64,000 nt of DNA, taken from an uncultured Peptococcaceae bacterium (lineage in GTDB: Bacteria > Bacillota > Dehalobacteriia > UBA4068 > UBA4997). A program made the translations under genes and the position numbers. The stretch covers positions 126,860 to 190,859 of the forward strand of contig CBCTTQ010000001.1 of NCBI GenBank assembly GCA_965149945.1, read 5' to 3'. This document shows positions 18,315 through 53,880 of this stretch, in pieces (the first letter of the stretch is position 1; each line of letters begins with the position of its first letter). The notes below the pieces were generated by a model that saw only the letters and a program-made list of their open reading frames with translations, ran no database searches and was not told the DNA's origin.

Positions 18315-19340
18315 TTACAGATGATATTCCATCGGGTAAGTGAGATAGCAATGGGGTTCTAACTGGTCACAGGTAACATATCCGGCGGGCGCGGTCAAAA
18401 GACTGGGGATGCGGTTGACTACAGTAGCGCAGGTATGTTCTACCGTAGCGGGTTTTACCACATGGAATTCGGTATTCGGTTCACCGGTAATCCACCAATC
18501 GCACATATCGCCGTCTTCGGGACCGTATACTTTGCCGATGGTTTCCTCTTCGATCGTGATGCCTTGCATGGTTTCGATGGTCACCACCGCGGACATGCCG
18601 ATGCAGTTGCCGGCGGGAATGGTTTTGCCCAAGGTGGAACTGTATACATCATGGTCGACAATATACGGTACATGTTTTTGCGTCATGGATTTGATGGTCA
18701 GACCCAGTTTGCTGCAGATGGCTTCGCTGGCGTTCCATGCGTAGGATGGCTCAAAATCAGCGGGATGGGCGATTTTTTGTTCAAATTCTTCGGGCGTCAG
18801 GTCACAGCCATGGGCGTTGGCCAAAGCGAGACCGTAATCTTCTACGTTATAGCTGTAGGCGCCTTTGATTTTTTCGATTTTATTGCAGCCGCTGGCTACC
18901 ATGGCGACCATATTGATCCAGAAGATATCCTGCATGCCGGATCCGGTGATGGTGCAATTATTTTCTTTTGCCAGCGCGTCCAGACGGTTGATTTGCGCCG
19001 CGGAAGTTGTCCACGGATAAATGGCTTCTTCGCAGGTCGTAATCACATTGATGCCGCGGGAAACACATTTTTCCACTTGATCGTAAATATCTCCGATAAA
19101 GCTGAACAGGGTGACAATGGCTACATCCGCGTCACATTCATCCAGCACTTTATCCGCGTCATCGGAAATGATCACACCGGTTTTCAATCCCAGTTCGGCG
19201 TAATCGCCTACATCCATTCCTACTACCTGAGGATTGACATCGATGGCGCCCACAATCTGAGCTCCGTGTTCATATAAATACCGAAGGGTGTATTTTGCCA
19301 TTTTACCGCAACCATACTGAACCACTTTAATCTTTTCCAT
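18315..19340 (-). CDS. DapB-like NAD(P)-binding oxidoreductase (2,4-diaminopentanoate dehydrogenase / native amine dehydrogenase family)
   Basis: The N-terminus [15 protein letters not shown] is a Rossmann GxGxxG motif, and the protein is ~340 aa as in Ord/KDD/nat-AmDH enzymes. An RBS AGGAGG lies upstream. Confidence 0.5.
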
Positions 19341-19438
19341 ATTGATTCCTCCTTGACATTATTGTTTTGAATAACGTTTCAGTGAAGCGATAGGAAAAAA
19401 GATGTCTCTTTTCATATCCGTAACTTTAGTATAAACCC

Positions 19439-20335
19439 TCATGCGGAAGGAGAGTCAAGAGTTTTTGTGAAAATTTTGGAACTATTTTCATCCTTTTGGA
19501 ATGTGACCGGTACCTGCAGGCGGAGAAACATCCTGCGGGGGTCGTTATCAAACACATTAAAGCCTGTTACAACCTCGCAAATATAATCCCCCGCTATTTG
19601 ATAGTTCATATTTTCGCAATGATCCCGCAGCAGCCGCGCGCAGCGTATTTCATCATCATAATTATCTAAGTAGATACAGGCGTACATGCCGCTGTCGATT
19701 ACCTGCAGAGCGGAAAGATCTCCCTGATCGCGGTCGCTGGTAAAAATGAAAATCTGATCCGCCACAAAGCGGTCTTCCAGAAAATCTTTTTGCAGAATGG
19801 AAGTCCCGATGTTGTAGGAATGGATTTGCTGAAATCCTTTTTCTTCCAGTTTTGCCCGCAGTTGGCGCAGGCTTTGCTCGTAGCTGTGGATATCGTCCTG
19901 ATAAAAATTGTAAGAGCAGGGAATTCCCCAAGAAAAACGTCGATCGATGTATTCTAAAGAAAGAGTGCCTGTAGCGGGAGATTTACGGTATCGTTCAATC
20001 GACATGATGGACCGTTCCACCGCGTCATGCTGGGCTTTGAGCTGGCGCATTTGCAGGTGGATTTGCTCGTTTTTTTGTGAGAGAAGCTCTTCAATGAGGG
20101 AAATATCTTCCTTTTGCAGCACCTGAGAGATTTGGGACAGGCTCATGCCCAGTTCTTTCATATAGGCGATCATGTCTAATCGGGCGTTTTGATTGATATC
20201 GTAGTAGCGATAACCTGTCTTGGGATCGACATAGCGTGGTTTAAGCAGCCCCTTTTCATCATAAAGGCGCAAAGTAGGGATGGAAATCCGATTCATCGCG
20301 GCCATTTTACCGATAGGAATTAAATTATCTTTCAT
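19439..20335 (-). CDS. MerR-family transcriptional regulator with C-terminal GyrI-like/effector-binding domain (BmrR-like)
   Basis: The N-terminus IGKMAAMNRISIPTLRLYDEKGLL is a MerR HTH, followed by a coiled coil and a ~150-aa effector domain. An RBS GGAGGG lies upstream. Confidence 0.75.
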   Translation of the reverse strand: MKDNLIPIGKMAAMNRISIPTLRLYDEKGLLKPRYVDPKTGYRYYDINQNARLDMIAYMKELGMSLSQISQVLQKEDISLIEELLSQKNEQIHLQMRQLKAQHDAVERSIMSIERYRKSPATGTLSLEYIDRRFSWGIPCSYNFYQDDIHSYEQSLRQLRAKLEEKGFQQIHSYNIGTSILQKDFLEDRFVADQIFIFTSDRDQGDLSALQVIDSGMYACIYLDNYDDEIRCARLLRDHCENMNYQIAGDYICEVVTGFNVFDNDPRRMFLRLQVPVTFQKDENSSKIFTKTLDSPSA

Positions 20336-20956
20336 GAAAATCCCTCCAAAACTCTAATCTTAATTAAGAGTTTACGACTGTTTTGGATGAATTGCAAGGG
20401 CCTTTGTTCATTTTGATGAAAAAAGATTCGCTTTACTTGAGAAATAACGGATTAGGTAAGAGTGCCGCGGGAAGATTTGTCGCTCGTCTGTCTCATAGCG
20501 GCGGGGAAGACGTACTTTTCGTAATAATTTTACAGAACTGTTTGTTTCTATACTTCTATAATAAAGAGAGAAAGAGATGTACAGCGGAAATTTTCGGAAA
20601 GAGAAAACGGTATCGATCGGGAGCGGCGTTATCGGTTTCGTTATAAAGAAAGGAAGCGGCGACGATTGGCTCTCTGATTGCCAAGTCTTTAAGGCGGCGT
20701 TTTTGATTGCGGTTCGGCAGCCCCTTGGCAAAGGAGGTACTTTTTTGAATCCCGAAGGGATTCTTTGCCGCGGGTAAGGGATGGGTTGGCGGTTTTAGTG
20801 AGGCGTTTTCGAAAAGAAGAAAAGAAGAGAAATGTCACTGATAAGGAAAATGCCTGCTATCGGCATTGGTTGTGGGGAATGAAGGAAAATACGAAAAGAA
20901 AATTGTTAGAATTTTCAGAGTATACAGAATACATGCGATTTTAGCGCTTTAAAGTG

Positions 20957-20985
20957 TTGACATTGGCGAAAAAATCGTTTATAAT
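20957..20985 (+). promoter_or_regulatory. sigma-A promoter (TTGACA-17-TATAAT) with a TTTAAAGT upstream element
   Basis: Perfect consensus hexamers at 20957 and 20980. It drives the homopurine, Lys-rich unit. Confidence 0.65.
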
Positions 20986-21197
20986 GAACTCACAAAACAA
21001 AAACAAATCAAACAAAAAAGGAAACAATAGTCGGGCAGGTGAAAACATCAAAATTCTTCGCGAAAGCGAATGACGGCAAAGATGAAAAATCTGCGAAAGC
21101 AAAATTGCTCCACGGGGAGCAATTCCACAGAACCCTGAACCGAAAGAGAATCCGCTGAAGAAGTCAAAAGACTAAAACAATTCCAAAAGGGATCAAA

Positions 21198-21836
21198 TTG
21201 AAAAAAGTCTTTTCGATGAATTCCAAAAAAGTTTTCAAAAGAAAGAAAATATCGAAGAGTACTCCTTCGGACCAAGCTTCAAAAGAGCGTAAGCCGAAAG
21301 AGATGGCTTCAAAAAAATCTTTCAAAAAAATTCTTCCGAAAGATTTCTCAAAAGAAGTAATTCAAAAAAAGTTTCCGAAGAAACCCTTTCCTGAAAATTA
21401 CTTTGAAAATGTTCGAAAAGGAAAAAGAAATTACGAAAGAAAAACCTCAAAAGAAGAGGAATTTTCAAAAGTAATCTTCCAAACCGGAAAAACTCAAAAA
21501 GCGCCTCAAAAGATGAGGAAAGGCAGACTTGAGAAAGGTAAAAAACATGTTGAAAACGCGCAAAGAGCGCGGAAACAACATCTTTCAAACCTAAAAAATT
21601 TCAAAAGAACAAAAATCAAAGAAAAACACGAAGTATCCGTAAGAAACTGCGATTTCCAAAATTCAAAAAGAGGAAATTCCCAAAAAGAGAAAAACTTAGC
21701 AATAAGAAAATCTTCAAAGAGCAATGCTCAAACAGAAGAAAACTTAGCAATAAGAAAAACTCAAAAGAGGAAATTCCCGAAAAGAATCGAAAAAGCAGAA
21801 AACAAAAAGGGAAACCAAACAAAAACAGGAAAATAA
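21198..21836 (+). CDS. lysine-rich, highly basic low-complexity protein (hypothetical; possible nucleic-acid-binding IDP), TTG start
   Basis: A 212-codon stop-free frame lies inside a tract of roughly 50% A. By chance a stop would occur about once every 15 codons. All T residues fall in TTC or TTT (Phe) or Ser codons. A weak RBS AAAGGGA precedes the TTG. Confidence 0.45.
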   Translation: MKKVFSMNSKKVFKRKKISKSTPSDQASKERKPKEMASKKSFKKILPKDFSKEVIQKKFPKKPFPENYFENVRKGKRNYERKTSKEEEFSKVIFQTGKTQKAPQKMRKGRLEKGKKHVENAQRARKQHLSNLKNFKRTKIKEKHEVSVRNCDFQNSKRGNSQKEKNLAIRKSSKSNAQTEENLAIRKTQKRKFPKRIEKAENKKGNQTKTGK

Positions 21837-21860
21837 CAGGTAATTTCTCAAGAAACAAAT

Positions 21861-22046
21861 TTGAAAAAACTTCTTTCAAGCGAATCAAAAGAGAACGAAA
21901 ACAATTGGAAAATCATCAAAGAAAAAAGTAAAAGCGAAAACCCAGAAAAGAGAATTGCTGAACCGAAGCGGAAACAGGAGGTATATTTTCAAAAGAAAGA
22001 ACAATCAAAAGTTCCTTCAAAAAAAAAGAAACAAAAAAGAAAATAA
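21861..22046 (+). CDS. second Lys-rich ORF in the same frame as 21198..21836, separated by a single TAA (possible readthrough or nonsense-split gene)
   Basis: Same frame ((21861-21198) is divisible by 3). It begins again with TTGAAAAAA and has the same composition. Confidence 0.3.
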   Translation: MKKLLSSESKENENNWKIIKEKSKSENPEKRIAEPKRKQEVYFQKKEQSKVPSKKKKQKRK

Positions 22047-22130
22047 CCTCAAAAATTGAAAACAAAAAGGAGTGAATCAAACTGCTTAGTCCAATCGTAA
22101 CCAAACACCTGCCCGAATTATATAACTAAA

Positions 22131-22164
22131 ATGCTCTCGATGTTGATCGGGAGCATTTTTTTTA
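22131..22164 (+). terminator. Rho-independent terminator closing the homopurine transcription unit
   Basis: gctctcga-tgttga-tcgggagc is followed by ATTTTTTTT. Confidence 0.75.
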
Positions 22165-22482
22165 TCTGAATAGATGATGGATCGAAGGATAGACGTTTTG
22201 TCCGACAGTGGGCGAAGTTTTCGTTTTTGTCTATGTCGAATTCGGCGGCGGATGGTCAAAAAGAGCGGGGAAAGAAACGAGGGGGCAACGAAACCGTGAA
22301 TATGATCGATTGTCGCGAGCAAAAGGAAAAGAGATCGAAAGGGTTCTTGTCGTTGTTTTTGATTCTCTTGACGAAAAATTTTTCAAAAAGCGGATCTCCG
22401 GCAAAAGGAGAACCAGGAAAAATGGAATGCGGACAAGAAAATCAGAGAAAAATAAGGGTAGATGTTACATGCGGAAATTTTT

Positions 22483-22511
22483 TTGAAACAGCGCCGCGTT
22501 TGTAGTATAAT
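22483..22511 (+). promoter_or_regulatory. sigma-A promoter (TTGAAA-17-TATAAT) for the THUMP methyltransferase gene
   Basis: Hexamers lie at 22483 and 22506. The 5' UTR carries a hairpin, gggcagc-tttc-gctgccc (22531-22548), between an SD-like AAAGGGG and the ATG. Confidence 0.5.
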
Positions 22512-24848: not shown

Positions 24849-25550
24849 CTAGAACGGTTGCGATTTGTAAGGGTTGCCCTTTGGGCGTTTGGCTTTGGGA
24901 GGTCCCAGAATTTCCGACCAGATAATCGCCTGTTGCAGTGGTGTCAATTTTTGTTGCTGCAACTGTCGGGCAATTTGGTCGTAGCCACTCGTTTTTTCCT
25001 GATAAACGGTTTGAATCGGTGTCGCCACCACTGTTTTTTCCGGGGGCTGACGATGGGTTTCCGCCATTTCCACCGGAATCGCCAGGACGGGGTCTGCCGT
25101 TGCTTTTCCGATTTTCTTAGGACGGCGAGGCGCTCCTTCTCGGGAACCACGGCCTTCGGTATAGCCTCGACCTTCTCGGGAACCACGGCCTTCGGTATAG
25201 CCTCGACCCTCGGTGGATCCTCGACCCTCTTTCAGAGAGCCGACCCCTTCCGGTAAAGACTCGTCGATGATATCTTTAAGCTGTTCGGCTTTTTGGCGAG
25301 CATTGTCGTATTTGCGCCGAAAATCGTCCAACGTCATCCCCTGTTCTTTGGGGGATTCCGCGTAAGGATGCCCGGAAGCGGGACGCCGCGGCGGTTGCTC
25401 GGGAGCGTTTCGGCGCCCATCGGCCATTTTGGCGCGGGCTTCACGGGCTTTTCGCGCCTGTTTTGCTTCTTTTTTTTGTTTCTTTTTGCGGCTTTCCATC
25501 AGCCCCGTCCCAATGATCAAGGCTGCCACGATAATGCTTAACCAATCCAT
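24849..25550 (-). CDS. membrane-anchored repetitive low-complexity protein (last gene of the nfeD-floA operon; YqfB-position analog)
   Basis: An N-terminal TM segment (MDWLSIIVAALIIGTGL) is followed by a basic stretch and tandem repeats (EGRGYTEGRGSR)x2. An RBS AAAGGAGGTG lies upstream. Confidence 0.6.
   Translation of the reverse strand: MDWLSIIVAALIIGTGLMESRKKKQKKEAKQARKAREARAKMADGRRNAPEQPPRRPASGHPYAESPKEQGMTLDDFRRKYDNARQKAEQLKDIIDESLPEGVGSLKEGRGSTEGRGYTEGRGSREGRGYTEGRGSREGAPRRPKKIGKATADPVLAIPVEMAETHRQPPEKTVVATPIQTVYQEKTSGYDQIARQLQQQKLTPLQQAIIWSEILGPPKAKRPKGNPYKSQPF
25135..25206. repeat. perfect 2 x 36-bp tandem repeat (plus a degenerate third copy) inside CDS 24849..25550
   Basis: ccttctcgggaaccacggccttcggtatagcctcga occurs twice. 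Confidence 0.85.
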
Positions 25551-29358: not shown

Positions 29359-29866
29359 CTTAACACCCCTCCGATACGGAATTCTGCGAATCCGCGTGTT
29401 TCAGCGGCGGCAGAACCGCTGCCGCTGAAGAACACAACAGAAATTATTCCCTAATGTATTCCTTATTATACCCAAATCTGACAAAAAAGGATAGCAATTA
29501 CACAAAAGTTTCATTCTTTTTTGTGTCTGTTACCAATTATGACGAGGGGTTTTTCACTCTTTTATCATAAAGAAAAAAGAATCCTGTCTCCATCTGGAAA
29601 AAACAAGCATATTTTTCCGGAGAACGGATAGACTGTAACATAAAGGTGAAAAGAAACACAATCGGCGCCGTGAAGAATTTGTAAATGGGAAAAAAACGAA
29701 TTTAAGATACAAAAACGCCGCGGTGAAAAACGAACGGAAATCGAATCTGAAAACAAAAAGCGGTCACTTGAAACGTCGAAAAAGAAAATCGAAAAATGAA
29801 AAAAGCGGAAAGAAAAAAAGTCGGAGCTGAAAATTATGAAGAAAAGAAGAGGTTGGAGTTGAAAAT

Positions 29867-41728: not shown

Positions 41729-42111
41729 AGGAATACCTCTTTTCTTGTCCGCGCGAGGCGGTTATGATTCTGTTTCGTCCCTTCTATTGTAGCCAATTTT
41801 TGATAAAAATACAAACGTTTTCCTTTCCTTTTGCGGAAAATATTTTCTGCTCTTTTGGTCTTTTTCTTATTTGTTCTTTTTTGTCGGTCTTTTGTTTTGG
41901 GTTCCTTTCCTCTTTTGATGTTTTTTCGTGTTTGGTTTTATTCTGACGGCTTTGTCGGTTTTCACTTTTGTTTTTGTTCCGTTCTGTTTCCGACCGAAGC
42001 GGAGGTGAGAAAGACGGCGAAGTTTTTCTTAGGTCTGTTTGAACGCTGAAAATAAGGGTTTAAAAGAAGCGTTTACGGGAAATAAACAGAATAGAAAAAG
42101 GAGGGAGCGCG

Positions 42112-45485: not shown

Positions 45486-45795
45486 GTAGAGAACGATTCT
45501 TCCTGCTGTAAGCGGACGATGATCCCGACGGCGGAAGGATTCATGTCGGTTAAAGCGATGAGCAGAAGGTTGTTTTTCGGAAAATTCCCCAGAGAGTCCG
45601 TGGAAGGTGCGAGTCGGACGGATTGGAAAAACAACGATCGTCTGTGAGTGTCTGCCTGAAGTCCATGAGATGTGTAAGGTGGAACGACTGCCCCTCGTTA
45701 CGGGGTCCGGAGTGGTCGCGCGCGCGGCAATAAGGGTGGTAACACGGCTTTTCGTCCCTTGGGGAAAAGGTCGTGTTTTTTATTTTCCTTTGTCG
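45486..45795 (+). promoter_or_regulatory. T-box riboswitch leader (Ile-tRNA sensing) upstream of ileS
   Basis: The conserved T-box sequence AAGGGTGGTAACACGG lies at 45732-45747, followed by a terminator-like hairpin with a T run (~45745-45790). An AGAGA-type stem I element and the position before ileS support the call. Confidence 0.7.
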
Positions 45796-45850
45796 CGAAC
45801 CCTTTCGTAAAAAACTGTTTCCCTAGAGGATGATGGAGAGGAGAAATGAA

Positions 45851-48625
45851 ACAATGGATTATGGGAAAACATTGAATTTGCCACAGACAGAGTTCCCCAT
45901 GCGCGGCAATTTGCCCGTGCGGGAACCGGAATTTCTGAAAGAATGGGAAGAGCAGGATCTCTATCGGCTGGTACAAGAACACAATGCCGGCAAGCCGAAG
46001 TTCATTTTGCATGACGGTCCCCCCTATGCCAATGGGGATATTCACACCGGTCATGTATTGAACAAAGTACTCAAAGATATGATTGTGAAATATAAAAGTA
46101 TGGCGGGCTATGATGCTCCTTATACCCCCGGTTGGGACACTCACGGACTGCCCATTGAACAAAAAGCCATCAAAGCCTTTGGCTTGAACCGCCATACCAT
46201 CGATAAAGCGGCGTTCCGAGAAAAATGCGAAGAGTTCGCTTTGAACTGTGTCAACAATCAACGGGAACAATTTAAGCGGCTGGGCGTGCGTGCCGACTGG
46301 GATCATCCCTATGTGACCTTGCAAAAAGACTTTGAAGCCATTCAAATCGGCGCTTTTGGTGAAATGGCAAAAAAAGGATATATCTATAAAGGCAAAAAAC
46401 CCGTTTACTGGTGTGCCGACTGTGAAACCGCCTTGGCGGAAGCCGAAGTGGAATATGCCGACCACAAGGCGCCTACCATTTATGTAAAATTCCGCGTGGT
46501 GGACGGCAAAGGTATTTTGGATGAGGATGTGTATTTCGTCATCTGGACGACCACTCCTTGGACAATTCCCGCTAATCTCGCCATCTGCCTGCATCCGGAC
46601 TATACTTATGTGTTGGCGGATATGGATGGGGAAAAAATGGTGGTTGCCAAAGATTTGATGAATACCTTCATGGCGGAAGCCGGTATTTCCGCGGGCAGTA
46701 TTTTGCGGGAATTTAAAGGCTCTGAACTGGAAATGATTCAATGTCAGCATCCGCTGTTGGATCGTACCTCTCTGGTTATTCTGGGGGACCATGTTACGTT
46801 GGACGCCGGTACCGGTTGTGTTCACACGGCGCCCGGTCATGGGGTGGAAGACTTTGAAGTGGGCATGAAATACGGTCTGGAAATCCTTTCCGCTGTGGAT
46901 GCCCGGGGAAAAATGAACGCTGATGCCGGTGAGCGCTTTCAGGGGATGAGCCTGGACGAGTGCAACAAAGCCGTAATCAGTGGTTTGGAAGAAGAAAACG
47001 CCGTGCTGGGTTTGAAATGGATCACCCATCAGTACCCCCATTGCTGGCGCTGCAAAAAACCCATTGTGTTCCGAGCGACGGAGCAGTGGTTCTGCTCCAT
47101 TGAAGGTTTCCGGGAAAAGGCCCTGTCGGAAATCGATCAGGTACGCTGGATTCCCGCTTGGGGACATGACCGCATTTATAATATGGTCAAAGACCGCTCG
47201 GACTGGTGCATTTCCCGACAGAGAACTTGGGGGGTACCCATTCCCATCTTCTATTGTAAAGATTGCGGCAAAGAAATCATCACCGATGAGACCATCGCCC
47301 ATATCCAGGATTTGTTCCGCCGATACGGTTCCAATATCTGGTTTGAAAAAGAAGCGGCGGAACTGATCCCCGAAGGATTGACTTGTTCCTGTGGCTGTCA
47401 GGAATTCCGTAAAGAAACGGATATCATGGATGTTTGGTTTGATTCCGGTTCCAGCCATTTGGCGGTGCTGGACAGCGGTGATTTTCCGGAACAGCGTTGG
47501 CCCGCCGATCTCTATCTGGAAGGCAGTGACCAGCACCGCGGCTGGTTTAACTCTTCTTTGAATGTGGCGGTGGCTGTTAAGGGTTCCGCTCCTTATAAAG
47601 CGGTATTGACGCACGGCTTCATCGTGGACGAAAAGGGTAAGAAAATGAGCAAATCCTTGGGTAACGCCTTGGACCCCCATGAAATCATCGACAAAATGGG
47701 GGCGGATGTGCTGCGCCTGTGGGTGGCGTCCGCTGATTATCGCTCTGACTTGTCCATCTCCAATAAAATTTTGAAACAAGTGGCGGAATCTTACCGCAAA
47801 ATCCGCAATACCTGTCGTTTCCTGCTGTCCAACCTGTATGACTTCGACCCCAAGACCGATTGTGTGGCTTATGGGGATCTGCCGGAAATCGACCGCTGGA
47901 TGCTCCACCGCTTGCAGGCGCTCATTGATAAAGTGCGCAAAGGTTATGATGAATATGAATTCCATGTGGTATATCATGCCATCCATAAATTCTGCGTGGT
48001 GGAAATGAGCAATTTGTATCTGGATATCACCAAGGATACCCTCTATTCTGAATTGCCCGATGACCCGCGCCGCCGGGCGGTGCAGACAGTGATGTATCGC
48101 ACTATTGACGCGTTGGTGCGTCTGTTGACGCCGGTGCTGGCTTATACCACGGAAGAAATTTATGATTATATGCCTAAGGCGGAAGAAGAAATGGCCAGTG
48201 TGCAGTTGTTGGATATGGCGGAGGCTAATCCTGACTGGATGGATGAAACGCTGGACGCTAAATGGCAAGCCATTACCGCTGTAAAAGACCAAGTAGCGAA
48301 GAGTCTGGAAACCGCTCGTAAGGAAAAGACTATCGGCAATTCCATCGACGCGCGGGTGGATCTCTACGCGGAAGGCGATACCTATGCTTTGCTTCATTCG
48401 GCGGAGGGACTGTTGGCTTATTTCTTTAAAGTTTCTCAGTTGGTTCTGCACGAAGGTCTTGATGGAAAGGCGGCGGAAGACGGAGTGGCCGTGACTGTTT
48501 CGGCGGCGGAAGGTCATAAATGCGAACGCTGCTGGCTTTACACTGAAGAAACGGACAGCGAAAACCCTGCTCTTTGCCCTCGCTGCGGCGAAGTGCTGCG
48601 TCATCTGCCCCGGGTGACAGAATAA
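45851..48625 (+). CDS. ileS: isoleucine--tRNA ligase
   Basis: HIGH ([11 protein letters not shown]) and KMSKS motifs, a C-terminal zinc-binding CxxC...CxxC, and ~925 aa. An RBS GGAGAGGAG lies 6 nt before ATG 45851. Confidence 0.9.
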
Positions 48626-53272: not shown

Positions 53273-53829
53273 CCTTTTTCGTCTCCTTTTTTCATGATTT
53301 TTCTTTTTTCTTCCGAGGGGCAAAGAAACAGGCATGTTCCTTTCCTCCGTGGAGCAAAGAAAACACGCCCGATAATTTGCGCTCAGGGTTTTTGTAAGGC
53401 AAAACAGTCGGAACAGCACTGTAGTTGCTGACTTGCTTCAGTATGTCCCTTTTCATCTTGCGTATCGACCCTCCTTTTCTGGAATCGGCAAAGGCGGCAG
53501 CGGTCTGCCGCCGTTCCTCTTTTATCATAGCATTTGGTGATGGACGGGACTACCATAAACAGGTATAATTTAAATAAAATGTATATGAAGAAAACAGGGA
53601 TTTCTCGAAAAAAAGAAAAGAAAACGACGCTGTCCGAGGAGCATGGAGAAAAGAAAAAAGAGACGGAAAGACGAGAAAAAAGATAGGTTTTCTCCTGCCG
53701 CGCGGAGAAAACAGCAATATCCCTCCAAAACATTTCAGAACGGCGTAAAAACAGAAAAATCGCGCCGAAAAGACAACCCTTGAAGGTAAAATCCCTAAAG
53801 AGTCAGGTAAAATGCAGGCAAAAAAAAAG

Positions 53830-53880
53830 AAAAAAACAGGGAAAATCCGACGCCGCGCCGGGAAATCGTCCCTGTTTTTA
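53830..53880. terminator. bidirectional terminator between the SDR gene and the surface-protein upstream region
   Basis: acaggga-N26-tccctgt is flanked by an A run and a T run. Confidence 0.5.

Follow-up and report, generated by a model that had tools for sequence, protein, structure and literature searches.

What does an A-rich transcription unit of just over 1 kb, lying directly upstream of the rlmL gene of an uncultured gut bacterium, produce: a lysine-rich protein, an RNA, or nothing of use to the cell? The unit sits in a 64,000-nucleotide stretch of DNA (the window; positions 126,860 to 190,859 of contig CBCTTQ010000001.1) from an uncultured Peptococcaceae bacterium. A preliminary description of the window had preferred a Lys-rich polypeptide and had kept as a fallback a function at the level of RNA, resting on a recurring word. 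Comparing the unit with that of a sister species and with other strains, we found the protein reading wanting and the fallback favored by the evidence. The locus is very probably a functional non-coding RNA gene. Our reading as a whole, in which a stand-alone gene produces an abundant non-coding RNA that serves as a multivalent decoy or scaffold, is one towards which we lean with some reserve, while the decoy or scaffold mechanism, taken by itself, is tentative.

As had been proposed, the unit is self-contained and runs from a promoter to a terminator (Table 1), and this arrangement is conserved in the orthologous locus of the sister species (L053). The perfect promoter reported at 20957-20985 is indeed there: it is the sole exact TTGACA-17-TATAAT within the 5 kb scanned, both of its hexamers and the 17-nt spacing are identical in the sister species, and transcription is predicted to start at A20992. 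The clean intrinsic terminator, previously placed at 22131-22164, has its stem at 22128-22159 and a T run reaching 22163; the sister species keeps the stem, the single change being located in the loop. The tract between them (20986-22130) consists of 50.2% A, 16.9% C, 16.2% G and 16.6% T, compared to 24% A in the whole 64-kb window, which bears out the earlier figure of about 50% A over 1.1 kb but not the label of an almost pyrimidine-free homopurine tract, as 17% C and 17% T leave it only 66% purine. The dinucleotide TA occurs at 0.30 of expectation in the unit; TA avoidance is a genome-wide habit (odds ratio 0.57 for the whole window) that is also seen in other A-rich spacers. The near-identical block 5′ of the -35 box is possibly an upstream promoter (UP) element or a regulator site. 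Left of about 20885-20900 the similarity between the species ends sharply, and the sister species has a different gene there.

Upon retrieving related loci, with same-species contigs found via the neighboring proteins and via a 107-aa protein fragment, we observed a constant link between the unit and rlmL. Same-species DNA contigs (L035-L038 and L061) join the A-rich body to rlmL, with L061 running directly from the unit into the gene, and the sister species carries its unit directly upstream of rlmL as well (L053 positions 756-2052, which align to 20885-22163 of the window at 82% identity). While the RlmL proteins of the two species share 90.5% of their amino acids, the four-fold sites of rlmL are only 55% identical. 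The unit far exceeds this level, at 86% identity in the 5′ leader and domain, 83% in the body and 93% in the 3′ domain (93% also over 22047-22165). About 55 nt upstream of the -35 box, the promoter, a 59-nt block (21042-21100) that is identical between the species, both arms of the terminal helix and the terminator are all kept, whereas the spacer of about 300 nt that follows (22164-22466, between terminator and rlmL promoter) cannot be aligned. Within the species, strains differ from the window by 0.2-0.4% in the unit, compared to 1.5-4.2% in the spacer and 0.6-0.7% in rlmL, and L035-L037 differ at 0.6% over the 179 nt of the unit that they cover. Together, these comparisons indicate that the unit is under purifying selection, and the neutral low-complexity spacer that the preliminary description had named as the outcome that would undo its proposal finds no support in them. 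The constraint is evenly spread over nucleotides and shows no codon-position bias, which points to a function at the level of RNA or, less likely, of DNA.

RNA structure was assessed by predicting local hairpins from the window alone, adding the terminal helix, and scoring both on a four-sequence alignment. The GC-rich, 11-bp terminal helix is invariant in all four sequences and pairs with a probability of about 1.0 in the full-length ensembles of either species, while an 11-nt match between the two 150-nt ends of the unit arose in only 1 of 1000 shuffles. The leader that precedes it retains its composition in the sister species despite a 6-nt indel. Fold z-scores against dinucleotide shuffles were, by segment, -2.7 (5′ domain), -3.7 and -5.1 (body) and -0.6, with roughly half of the bases unpaired in the full-length ensembles. 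Pairs changed on both sides numbered 11, compared to 0-2 in slid controls, and none of 500 shuffles reached 11. In a second comparison, against a null of our own, 19% of pairs were double-compensated where the null gives 3.7%. Such changes include two in the hairpin 21103-21124 (U-A to C-G and C-G to U-A), the conversion of CGCGC/GCGCG to CGCGA/UCGCG at 21557-21571, and others at 21955-21980 and 21996-22017, while a hairpin of the 3′ domain (alignment columns 1126-1146) is invariant. The body also contains a 48-nt local duplication (21675-21770). The generic marks of a structured non-coding RNA, namely nucleotide-level selection, compensatory pairs and conserved transcription signals, are thus present, in two species. 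The SD-like (Shine-Dalgarno-like) element AAAGGAGTGA of the 3′ domain (22066-22075) is a near-perfect complement of the anti-Shine-Dalgarno sequence; a hairpin is predicted to sequester this invariant element, and no canonical start codon lies 3′ of it.

The recurring word turned out to be part of a hairpin. The preliminary description had counted a YTCAAAAG-like word about 28 times in more than one frame; we likewise found TCAAAAG-type words in all three frames, with counts in the unit of 12 for TCAAAAG (1.1 expected) and 20 for TCAAAA (6.9 expected), and 12 of the 33 TCAAAAG occurrences of the whole window lie in the unit, all on the + strand. The word generalizes to a tetraloop hairpin, YUC-RAAA-GAR. 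C-RAAA-G occurs 19 times in the window unit against 4.6 expected (14 against 4.7 in the sister species) and G-RAAA-C 11 times against 3.2 (8 against 3.4), whereas A..U and U..A closings of RAAA are not enriched. Overall, the unit holds about 30 RAAA tetraloop mini-hairpins closed by G-C or C-G, an enrichment of about four-fold, and stems of at least 3 bp are found at 47-64% of C-RAAA-G sites compared to 14% in shuffles. Several loops alternate between AAAA and GAAA from one species to the other with the stem kept, for example GUC-AAAA-GAC to GUC-GAAA-GAC.

Two stand-alone contigs hint at strong expression. L056 (source set OYSW01), a human-gut contig of 1164 nt at a coverage of 70.7, corresponds to 21000-22164, starting 8 nt past the predicted +1 and ending at the base after the T8 run. 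L051 (ERZ21844449), 1106 nt long at a coverage of 155.7, corresponds to 21032-22134, its left end coinciding with the first paired base of the terminal helix. The two contigs are isolated, unit-sized and of high coverage, whereas the same-species DNA assemblies continue into rlmL. An abundant transcript, once assembled, would be expected to yield contigs that end at the transcription start and at the terminator, and from these ends and the coverage we infer that L051 and L056 are such transcripts. A metagenome scan with a 20-mer of the 5′ domain returned L056 as the one true match, next to six chance matches in GC-rich genomes.

We hypothesize that an RNA of about 1,170 nt would start near A20992 from the consensus sigma-A promoter and end around 22163 at the terminator. 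In our computations its ends are clamped by the invariant 11-bp helix, and its conserved structured domains lie just inside each end. The interior of about 850 nt is about half unpaired A-rich RNA, together with about 30 short RAAA hairpins. This interior shifts fast by indels and local duplication but retains composition, motif and a good number of stems, a pattern typical of decoys, scaffolds and other RNAs with many copies of a short motif, and it suggests a function via such copies rather than via one precise fold. The RNA could accordingly be pictured as a multivalent platform that acts stoichiometrically, either as a decoy or scaffold for an RNA-binding protein recognizing the YUC-RAAA-GAR hairpin or as a partner in RNA-RNA tetraloop contacts, with the terminal helix and the terminator possibly shielding it from exonucleases. 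The unit might be the first example of a new class of very large bacterial RNAs (about 1.2 kb) that are highly expressed and built as a clamped, mostly single-stranded poly-A-like thread with about 30 RAAA mini-hairpins, a suggestion that we make with considerable doubt. That members of such a class would serve as multivalent decoys or scaffolds for an RNA-binding protein, or would associate with themselves, is speculative to a like degree.

Several observations weigh against this interpretation. No partner protein or target has been identified, and the transcript nature of L051 and L056 is read from contig ends and coverage. The two best-known sponge signatures are absent from the unit: GGA is not enriched (17 compared to 16.5 in shuffles; ANGGA 5 compared to 8.1), and both (ARN)4 (23 compared to 35.9 expected) and (AAN)4 (4 compared to 14.6) are depleted. 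As for the structure, 35 of the 223 counted pairs, which were predicted from the window only, are broken in the sister species, and the overall retention of changed pairs, at 26-40%, is barely above the null of 28%; only part of the predicted hairpins is supported. The comparison covers two species and a few strains, and the covariation rests on a single divergent sequence. Finally, all copies seen come from one narrow lineage, and neither a copy nor an A-rich tract was found at the loci of relatives with RlmL at 75-76% identity or with MerR at 88-90%.

We compared the unit with known families, among them OLE, ROOL, GOLLD, raiA, 6S, CsrB, RsmZ and CrcZ. In Rfam, the region matched no model at the gathering score, and relaxing the cut-off to E = 10 gave only chance matches to leader models and to eukaryotic snoRNA and miRNA models, on the opposite strand; literature searches on A-rich large non-coding RNAs and on the sample accessions turned up nothing relevant. 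Like CsrB/CsrC/RsmX-Y-Z, the unit stands alone as a gene, has a strong promoter and an intrinsic terminator, and repeats a short motif many times in the loops of small hairpins, with unstructured linkers in between; its body evolves fast via indels and repeat number, and its abundance implies stoichiometric action. It differs from them in its motif (C/G-RAAA-G/C, not GGA), in having no known CsrA-type partner, and in being about three times longer, 50% A, closed by a long-range helix and without an Rfam match; given the GGA counts, a CsrA/RsmA sponge was rejected. CrcZ/CrcY, the Hfq/Crc decoys of Pseudomonas, are A-rich non-coding RNAs as well, and the unit could similarly titrate a protein that binds single-stranded A-rich RNA, but it belongs to another phylum, has no model match and is depleted in the Hfq distal-face signature; we rejected an Hfq distal-face decoy because (ARN)n or AANAANAA tracts are depleted rather than enriched. 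With OLE, ROOL, GOLLD and raiA the unit shares large size, apparently very high abundance, an origin in anaerobic Firmicutes or the gut, a function that is unknown and frequent GNRA-type tetraloops. Unlike them, it has no covariance-model match even at E up to 10 and is low-complexity, about half paired, not ornately folded and so far seen in just two sister species; at about 1.17 kb it is also longer than any of the four. In type III toxin-antitoxin systems, the antitoxin RNA is a regular tandem array with a repeat unit of about 36 nt, and a terminator and the gene of a toxin endoribonuclease lie downstream. Such an antitoxin was rejected, since TRF gives only short weak arrays and the downstream gene encodes an RlmL/THUMP methyltransferase, as was an Obelisk or viroid-like RNA, since the unit is chromosomal and cannot form a rod. 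By analogy, the unit most resembles the sequestering RNAs of CsrB/RsmZ or CrcZ type in function, and the OLE/ROOL/GOLLD group in size and abundance; that its architecture sets it apart from all of these as a class of its own is a cautious proposal. Having failed the covariance-model, GGA and ARN tests, it is filed as an orphan large abundant bacterial non-coding RNA, seen so far in two sister species of an uncultured gut Clostridia lineage.

To our knowledge, bacterial non-coding RNAs above 1 kb are very rare, and each one that we know to have been characterized gave unexpected biology. The present RNA comes from an uncultured human-gut Clostridia lineage, is apparently among its most abundant transcripts, and unites extreme A-richness, a tetraloop-hairpin motif in many copies and clear purifying selection. 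Were the RNA indeed a decoy or scaffold, this would point to an RNA-binding regulator new to gut Firmicutes.

Among the alternatives, the one that survives best, at a low probability, is a regulator that acts by base pairing or in cis, in which the 5′ or 3′ domain would pair with mRNAs in trans or the unit would control rlmL. The synteny with rlmL, kept in both species though the left neighbor differs, would fit such a role, as would the identical 59-nt block of the 5′ domain and the conserved AAAGGAGTGA. A strong terminator, the unconserved spacer of 300 nt and a separate promoter (an 11/12 match at 22483-22511) nevertheless stand between the unit and rlmL, a seed-type regulator has no need of an 850-nt repetitive body, and no target was identified.

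A neutral, expanded A-rich intergenic spacer, whose promoter and terminator would be fortuitous or left over, is very unlikely. The window does contain shorter intergenic tracts of 45-49% A, and the unit is missing from relatives at the next level of relatedness. Neutral drift, however, would not leave 83-93% identity where neutral sites are at about 55% and the adjoining spacer is unalignable, nor a within-species polymorphism below that of the neighboring spacer, an invariant promoter, terminal helix and terminator, or specific motif enrichment with compensatory changes. The shorter tracts, which are TA-depleted, lie at 29560-29866 (+), 41730-42010 (-) and 53560-53880 (+), and a further TA-depleted tract of the purine-rich or A-rich class, 34% A, lies at 22200-22480 (+); most of them sit 5′ of promoters or genes. 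Within this genome-wide compositional habit, the 1.1-kb unit marks the extreme.

The two open frames of 212 and 61 codons, both starting TTGAAAAAA, are present as the preliminary description had reported. Its estimate that a frame of this length had a chance of about 1e-6 did not stand: stops come about once per 32 codons, and an open stretch of at least 225 codons appeared in 0.6% of 2000 dinucleotide-preserving shuffles (p = 0.006), though never in 2000 mononucleotide shuffles. The Lys-rich frame thus follows from the 50% A of the tract together with its strong TA depletion. Could selection instead act on composition only, such that any frame yields a polycationic peptide rich in K/R/E/N/Q and frameshifts are tolerated? 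We consider frame-agnostic translation of this kind hardly more than a theoretical option. In its favor, the longest open stretch over the region is unusually long in both species (225 codons in the window and 208 in the sister species) despite frame-shifting indels, and the TA depletion of the unit, stronger than that of the genome, keeps frames open. Yet the long frames have neither a conserved start codon nor a conserved Shine-Dalgarno sequence, the allele of strain L051 is split into 59 and 107 codons, the nucleotide identity of 83-93% far exceeds what selection on composition would need, the compensatory stem changes indicate constraint on the RNA, and TA depletion is found genome-wide and in other A-rich spacers.

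That the unit is the mRNA of a conserved, Lys-rich, disordered basic protein, of 212 aa or, by readthrough, 283 aa, is scarcely credible. The open frame itself, its p value, the uneven stop counts across the three frames of the tract (4/12/19), and a weak SD-like AAGGG 6 nt 5′ of the TTG at 21198, which is kept in the sister species together with the TTG, speak for it. In the sister species, however, this TTG opens just 31 codons; the long open reading frame (ORF) there starts elsewhere, its start codon corresponds to TCA in the window, and over the near-identical block 21666-21790 the window ORF and the 179-codon ORF of the sister species read different frames. Within 21198-21836 we counted 11 indels (lengths 2, 5, 1, 2, 1, 17, 4, 18, 7, 1 and 3), 9 of which break the frame while 2 are multiples of three, leaving 255, 222 and 162 nt in the three relative frames. 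Substitutions are spread evenly over codon positions 1/2/3 (40/31/35). The 61-codon stretch fares no better, with indels of 1 nt and 13 nt between the species and an A run (22019-22027) that is A9 in the window and A8 in the same-species contigs L035, L036, L037, L056 and L061. In strain L051, 99.7% identical, an extra A in the A run 21363-21370 causes the frameshift that splits the ORF, and all three single-nucleotide polymorphisms inside the 212-codon ORF are nonsynonymous. Frame, start and stop are thus unconserved, the very outcome that the preliminary description had named as refuting its protein.

Codon-level statistics gave the same answer. The mean log relative synonymous codon usage (RSCU), which measures the fit of synonymous codon choice to the genes of this genome, is -0.149 for the 212-codon frame, below all 39 genes of the window (lowest -0.003) and no better than in the other two frames. 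Arg is encoded by AGR in 13 of 16 cases, compared to 83 AGR and 729 CGN in the window genes, and TCA accounts for 8 of 18 Ser codons, compared to 2% in genes. The period-3 signal-to-noise ratio (period-3 power over background) stands at 0.75, where eight genes trimmed to equal length range from 2.7 to 14.9. Neither A (0.49/0.50/0.52 by codon position) nor T (0.16/0.18/0.18) is phased, contrary to the earlier impression that T is almost confined to Phe and Ser codons. Homology searches for the product returned no homologue among 5.8 billion protein clusters (word-indexed search), no Pfam domain and, in an exhaustive phmmer search of 1.84 billion representatives, a 99% identical 107-aa fragment of the same species as the sole match; exact look-up gave no record for the 212-codon ORF or for the 298-aa MerR ORF. 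Lys-rich disordered basic proteins such as the histone-H1-like Hc1 resemble the hypothetical product in its Lys content of about 25%, but the unit lacks frame conservation, codon bias, periodicity and homologues. A Lys attenuator or leader peptide was rejected as well, since 300 nt separate the end of the ORF from a constitutive-looking terminator and rlmL is served by a promoter of its own. The locus is a cautionary case: a frame of 212 codons, at p < 0.01, can arise purely from A-richness and TA avoidance, and gene callers do annotate pieces of this A-rich unit as proteins. A 22-codon ATG ORF, MTAKMKNLRKQNCSTGSNSTEP, at 21070-21138 has the same length in both species, lacks a Shine-Dalgarno sequence and overlaps conserved hairpins; of its codon changes between the species, 2 are synonymous and 4 are not.

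A mobile or DNA-level element, be it an insertion resembling a miniature inverted-repeat transposable element (MITE) with 11-bp inverted repeats or curved A-tract DNA, can be set aside almost entirely: inverted repeats at both ends, the synteny break on the left, stand-alone high-coverage contigs that could mean multiple copies, and a signal-to-background of 2.5 at period 10.5 are countered by a copy number of one in the 64-kb window as in all fetched loci, rlmL as the unvarying right-hand context in every DNA contig, no target-site duplication beside the repeats, no match in phage, plasmid or viral collections, L056 ends that match the transcription start and terminator rather than the repeats, and a promoter that lies outside the repeats and is yet conserved with the unit. 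Nhmmer searches of the window and all fetched loci, with one profile each for the whole unit, its 5′ domain and its 3′ domain, found no further copies, and BLAST against plasmids and phages and two viral-contig scans gave no match.

The surroundings of our RNA gene candidate differ on its two sides. While rlmL synteny is kept, the left neighbor of the unit differs in the sister species, which makes the left edge a synteny break; the gene upstream of MerR differs too. Upstream of the sister-species MerR gene (window about 20400) lies a different ORF, at least 202 codons long, whose product has a K/R-rich C-terminus (L052 1-609), so that 20400-20885 of the window is lineage-specific and the unit lies at a rearrangement boundary. 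When GTDB genomes were searched for synteny through rlmL, the best relatives proved just 55% identical and lacked the tract. In Acetatifactor, the place directly 5′ of the rlmL orthologue is taken by an extremely Asn/Gln-rich ORF of about 53-54 codons (for example MDNNKYNNANNSENCKNSQNNSQNQNNNQ...; L005 5752-5916; L020 5738-5898), which has both a Shine-Dalgarno sequence and a terminator; its position matches that of the A-rich unit. The positions of the features discussed above are collected in Table 1.

Table 1. Features of the A-rich unit and its flanks (positions refer to the window).
Feature	Position	Strand	Comment
Conserved block 5′ of the -35 box	20900-20956	+	Near-identical in the sister species; includes the palindrome GTATAC
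Sigma-70-type promoter TTGACA-17-TATAAT	20957-20985	+	12/12 match
5′ leader of A and C, predicted single-stranded	20992-21030	+	Unpaired in the consensus fold
Closing helix, 5′ arm TCGGGCAGGTG	21031-21041	+	Perfect 11-nt complement of 22106-22116
Conserved structured 5′ domain	21042-21197	+	GAAA-tetraloop hairpins 21057-21070 and 21092-21099; hairpin 21103-21124
A-rich variable body	21198-22046	+	RAAA mini-hairpins; 83% identical between species, 13 indels
212-codon TTG frame	21198-21836	+	Incidental, not a conserved coding sequence
61-codon TTG frame	21861-22046	+	Incidental
Conserved 3′ domain	22047-22127	+	SD-like AAAGGAGTGA (22066-22075) and 3′ arm of the closing helix
Closing helix, 3′ arm CACCTGCCCGA	22106-22116	+	Pairs with 21031-21041
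Intrinsic terminator	22128-22163	+	14-pair stem 22128-22159, 4-nt loop, 3′ arm running into T8 (22156-22163)

Some further observations concern the unit and its neighborhood. Three independent same-species assemblies (L035, L036 and L037) all start exactly at 21987, the second base of the downstream copy of a perfect 16-nt repeat, TTTTCAAAAGAAAGAA (21232-21247 and 21986-22001), and this shared start may stem from strain heterogeneity or from a variant with a deletion between the two TTTTCAAAAGAAAGAA copies. On the minus strand, a promoter-like TCAACA-18-TATAAT at 22146-22117 is directed antisense into the unit, with TCGACA as its -35 box in the sister species, and mini-hairpins that precede T runs on that strand score as terminator-like (21269-21253, 21518-21504 and 21070-21057). 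The MerR regulator and DapB-like oxidoreductase at 18315-20335 have relatives at 88-90% (L049 and L050) in genomes of 56-57% GC, and the closest non-sister rlmL relatives are 75% identical, in genomes of 41-46% GC; judging from these sequences, the MerR/DapB-like pair may have been horizontally transferred. Elsewhere in the window, a T-box leader (Rfam RF00230, 95.7 bits) at 45549-45762 precedes a 931-codon ORF (45830-48625), and a 233-aa ORF at 24849-25550 (-), with no Pfam match, contains tandem EGRGSTEGRGYTEGRGSR-type repeats.

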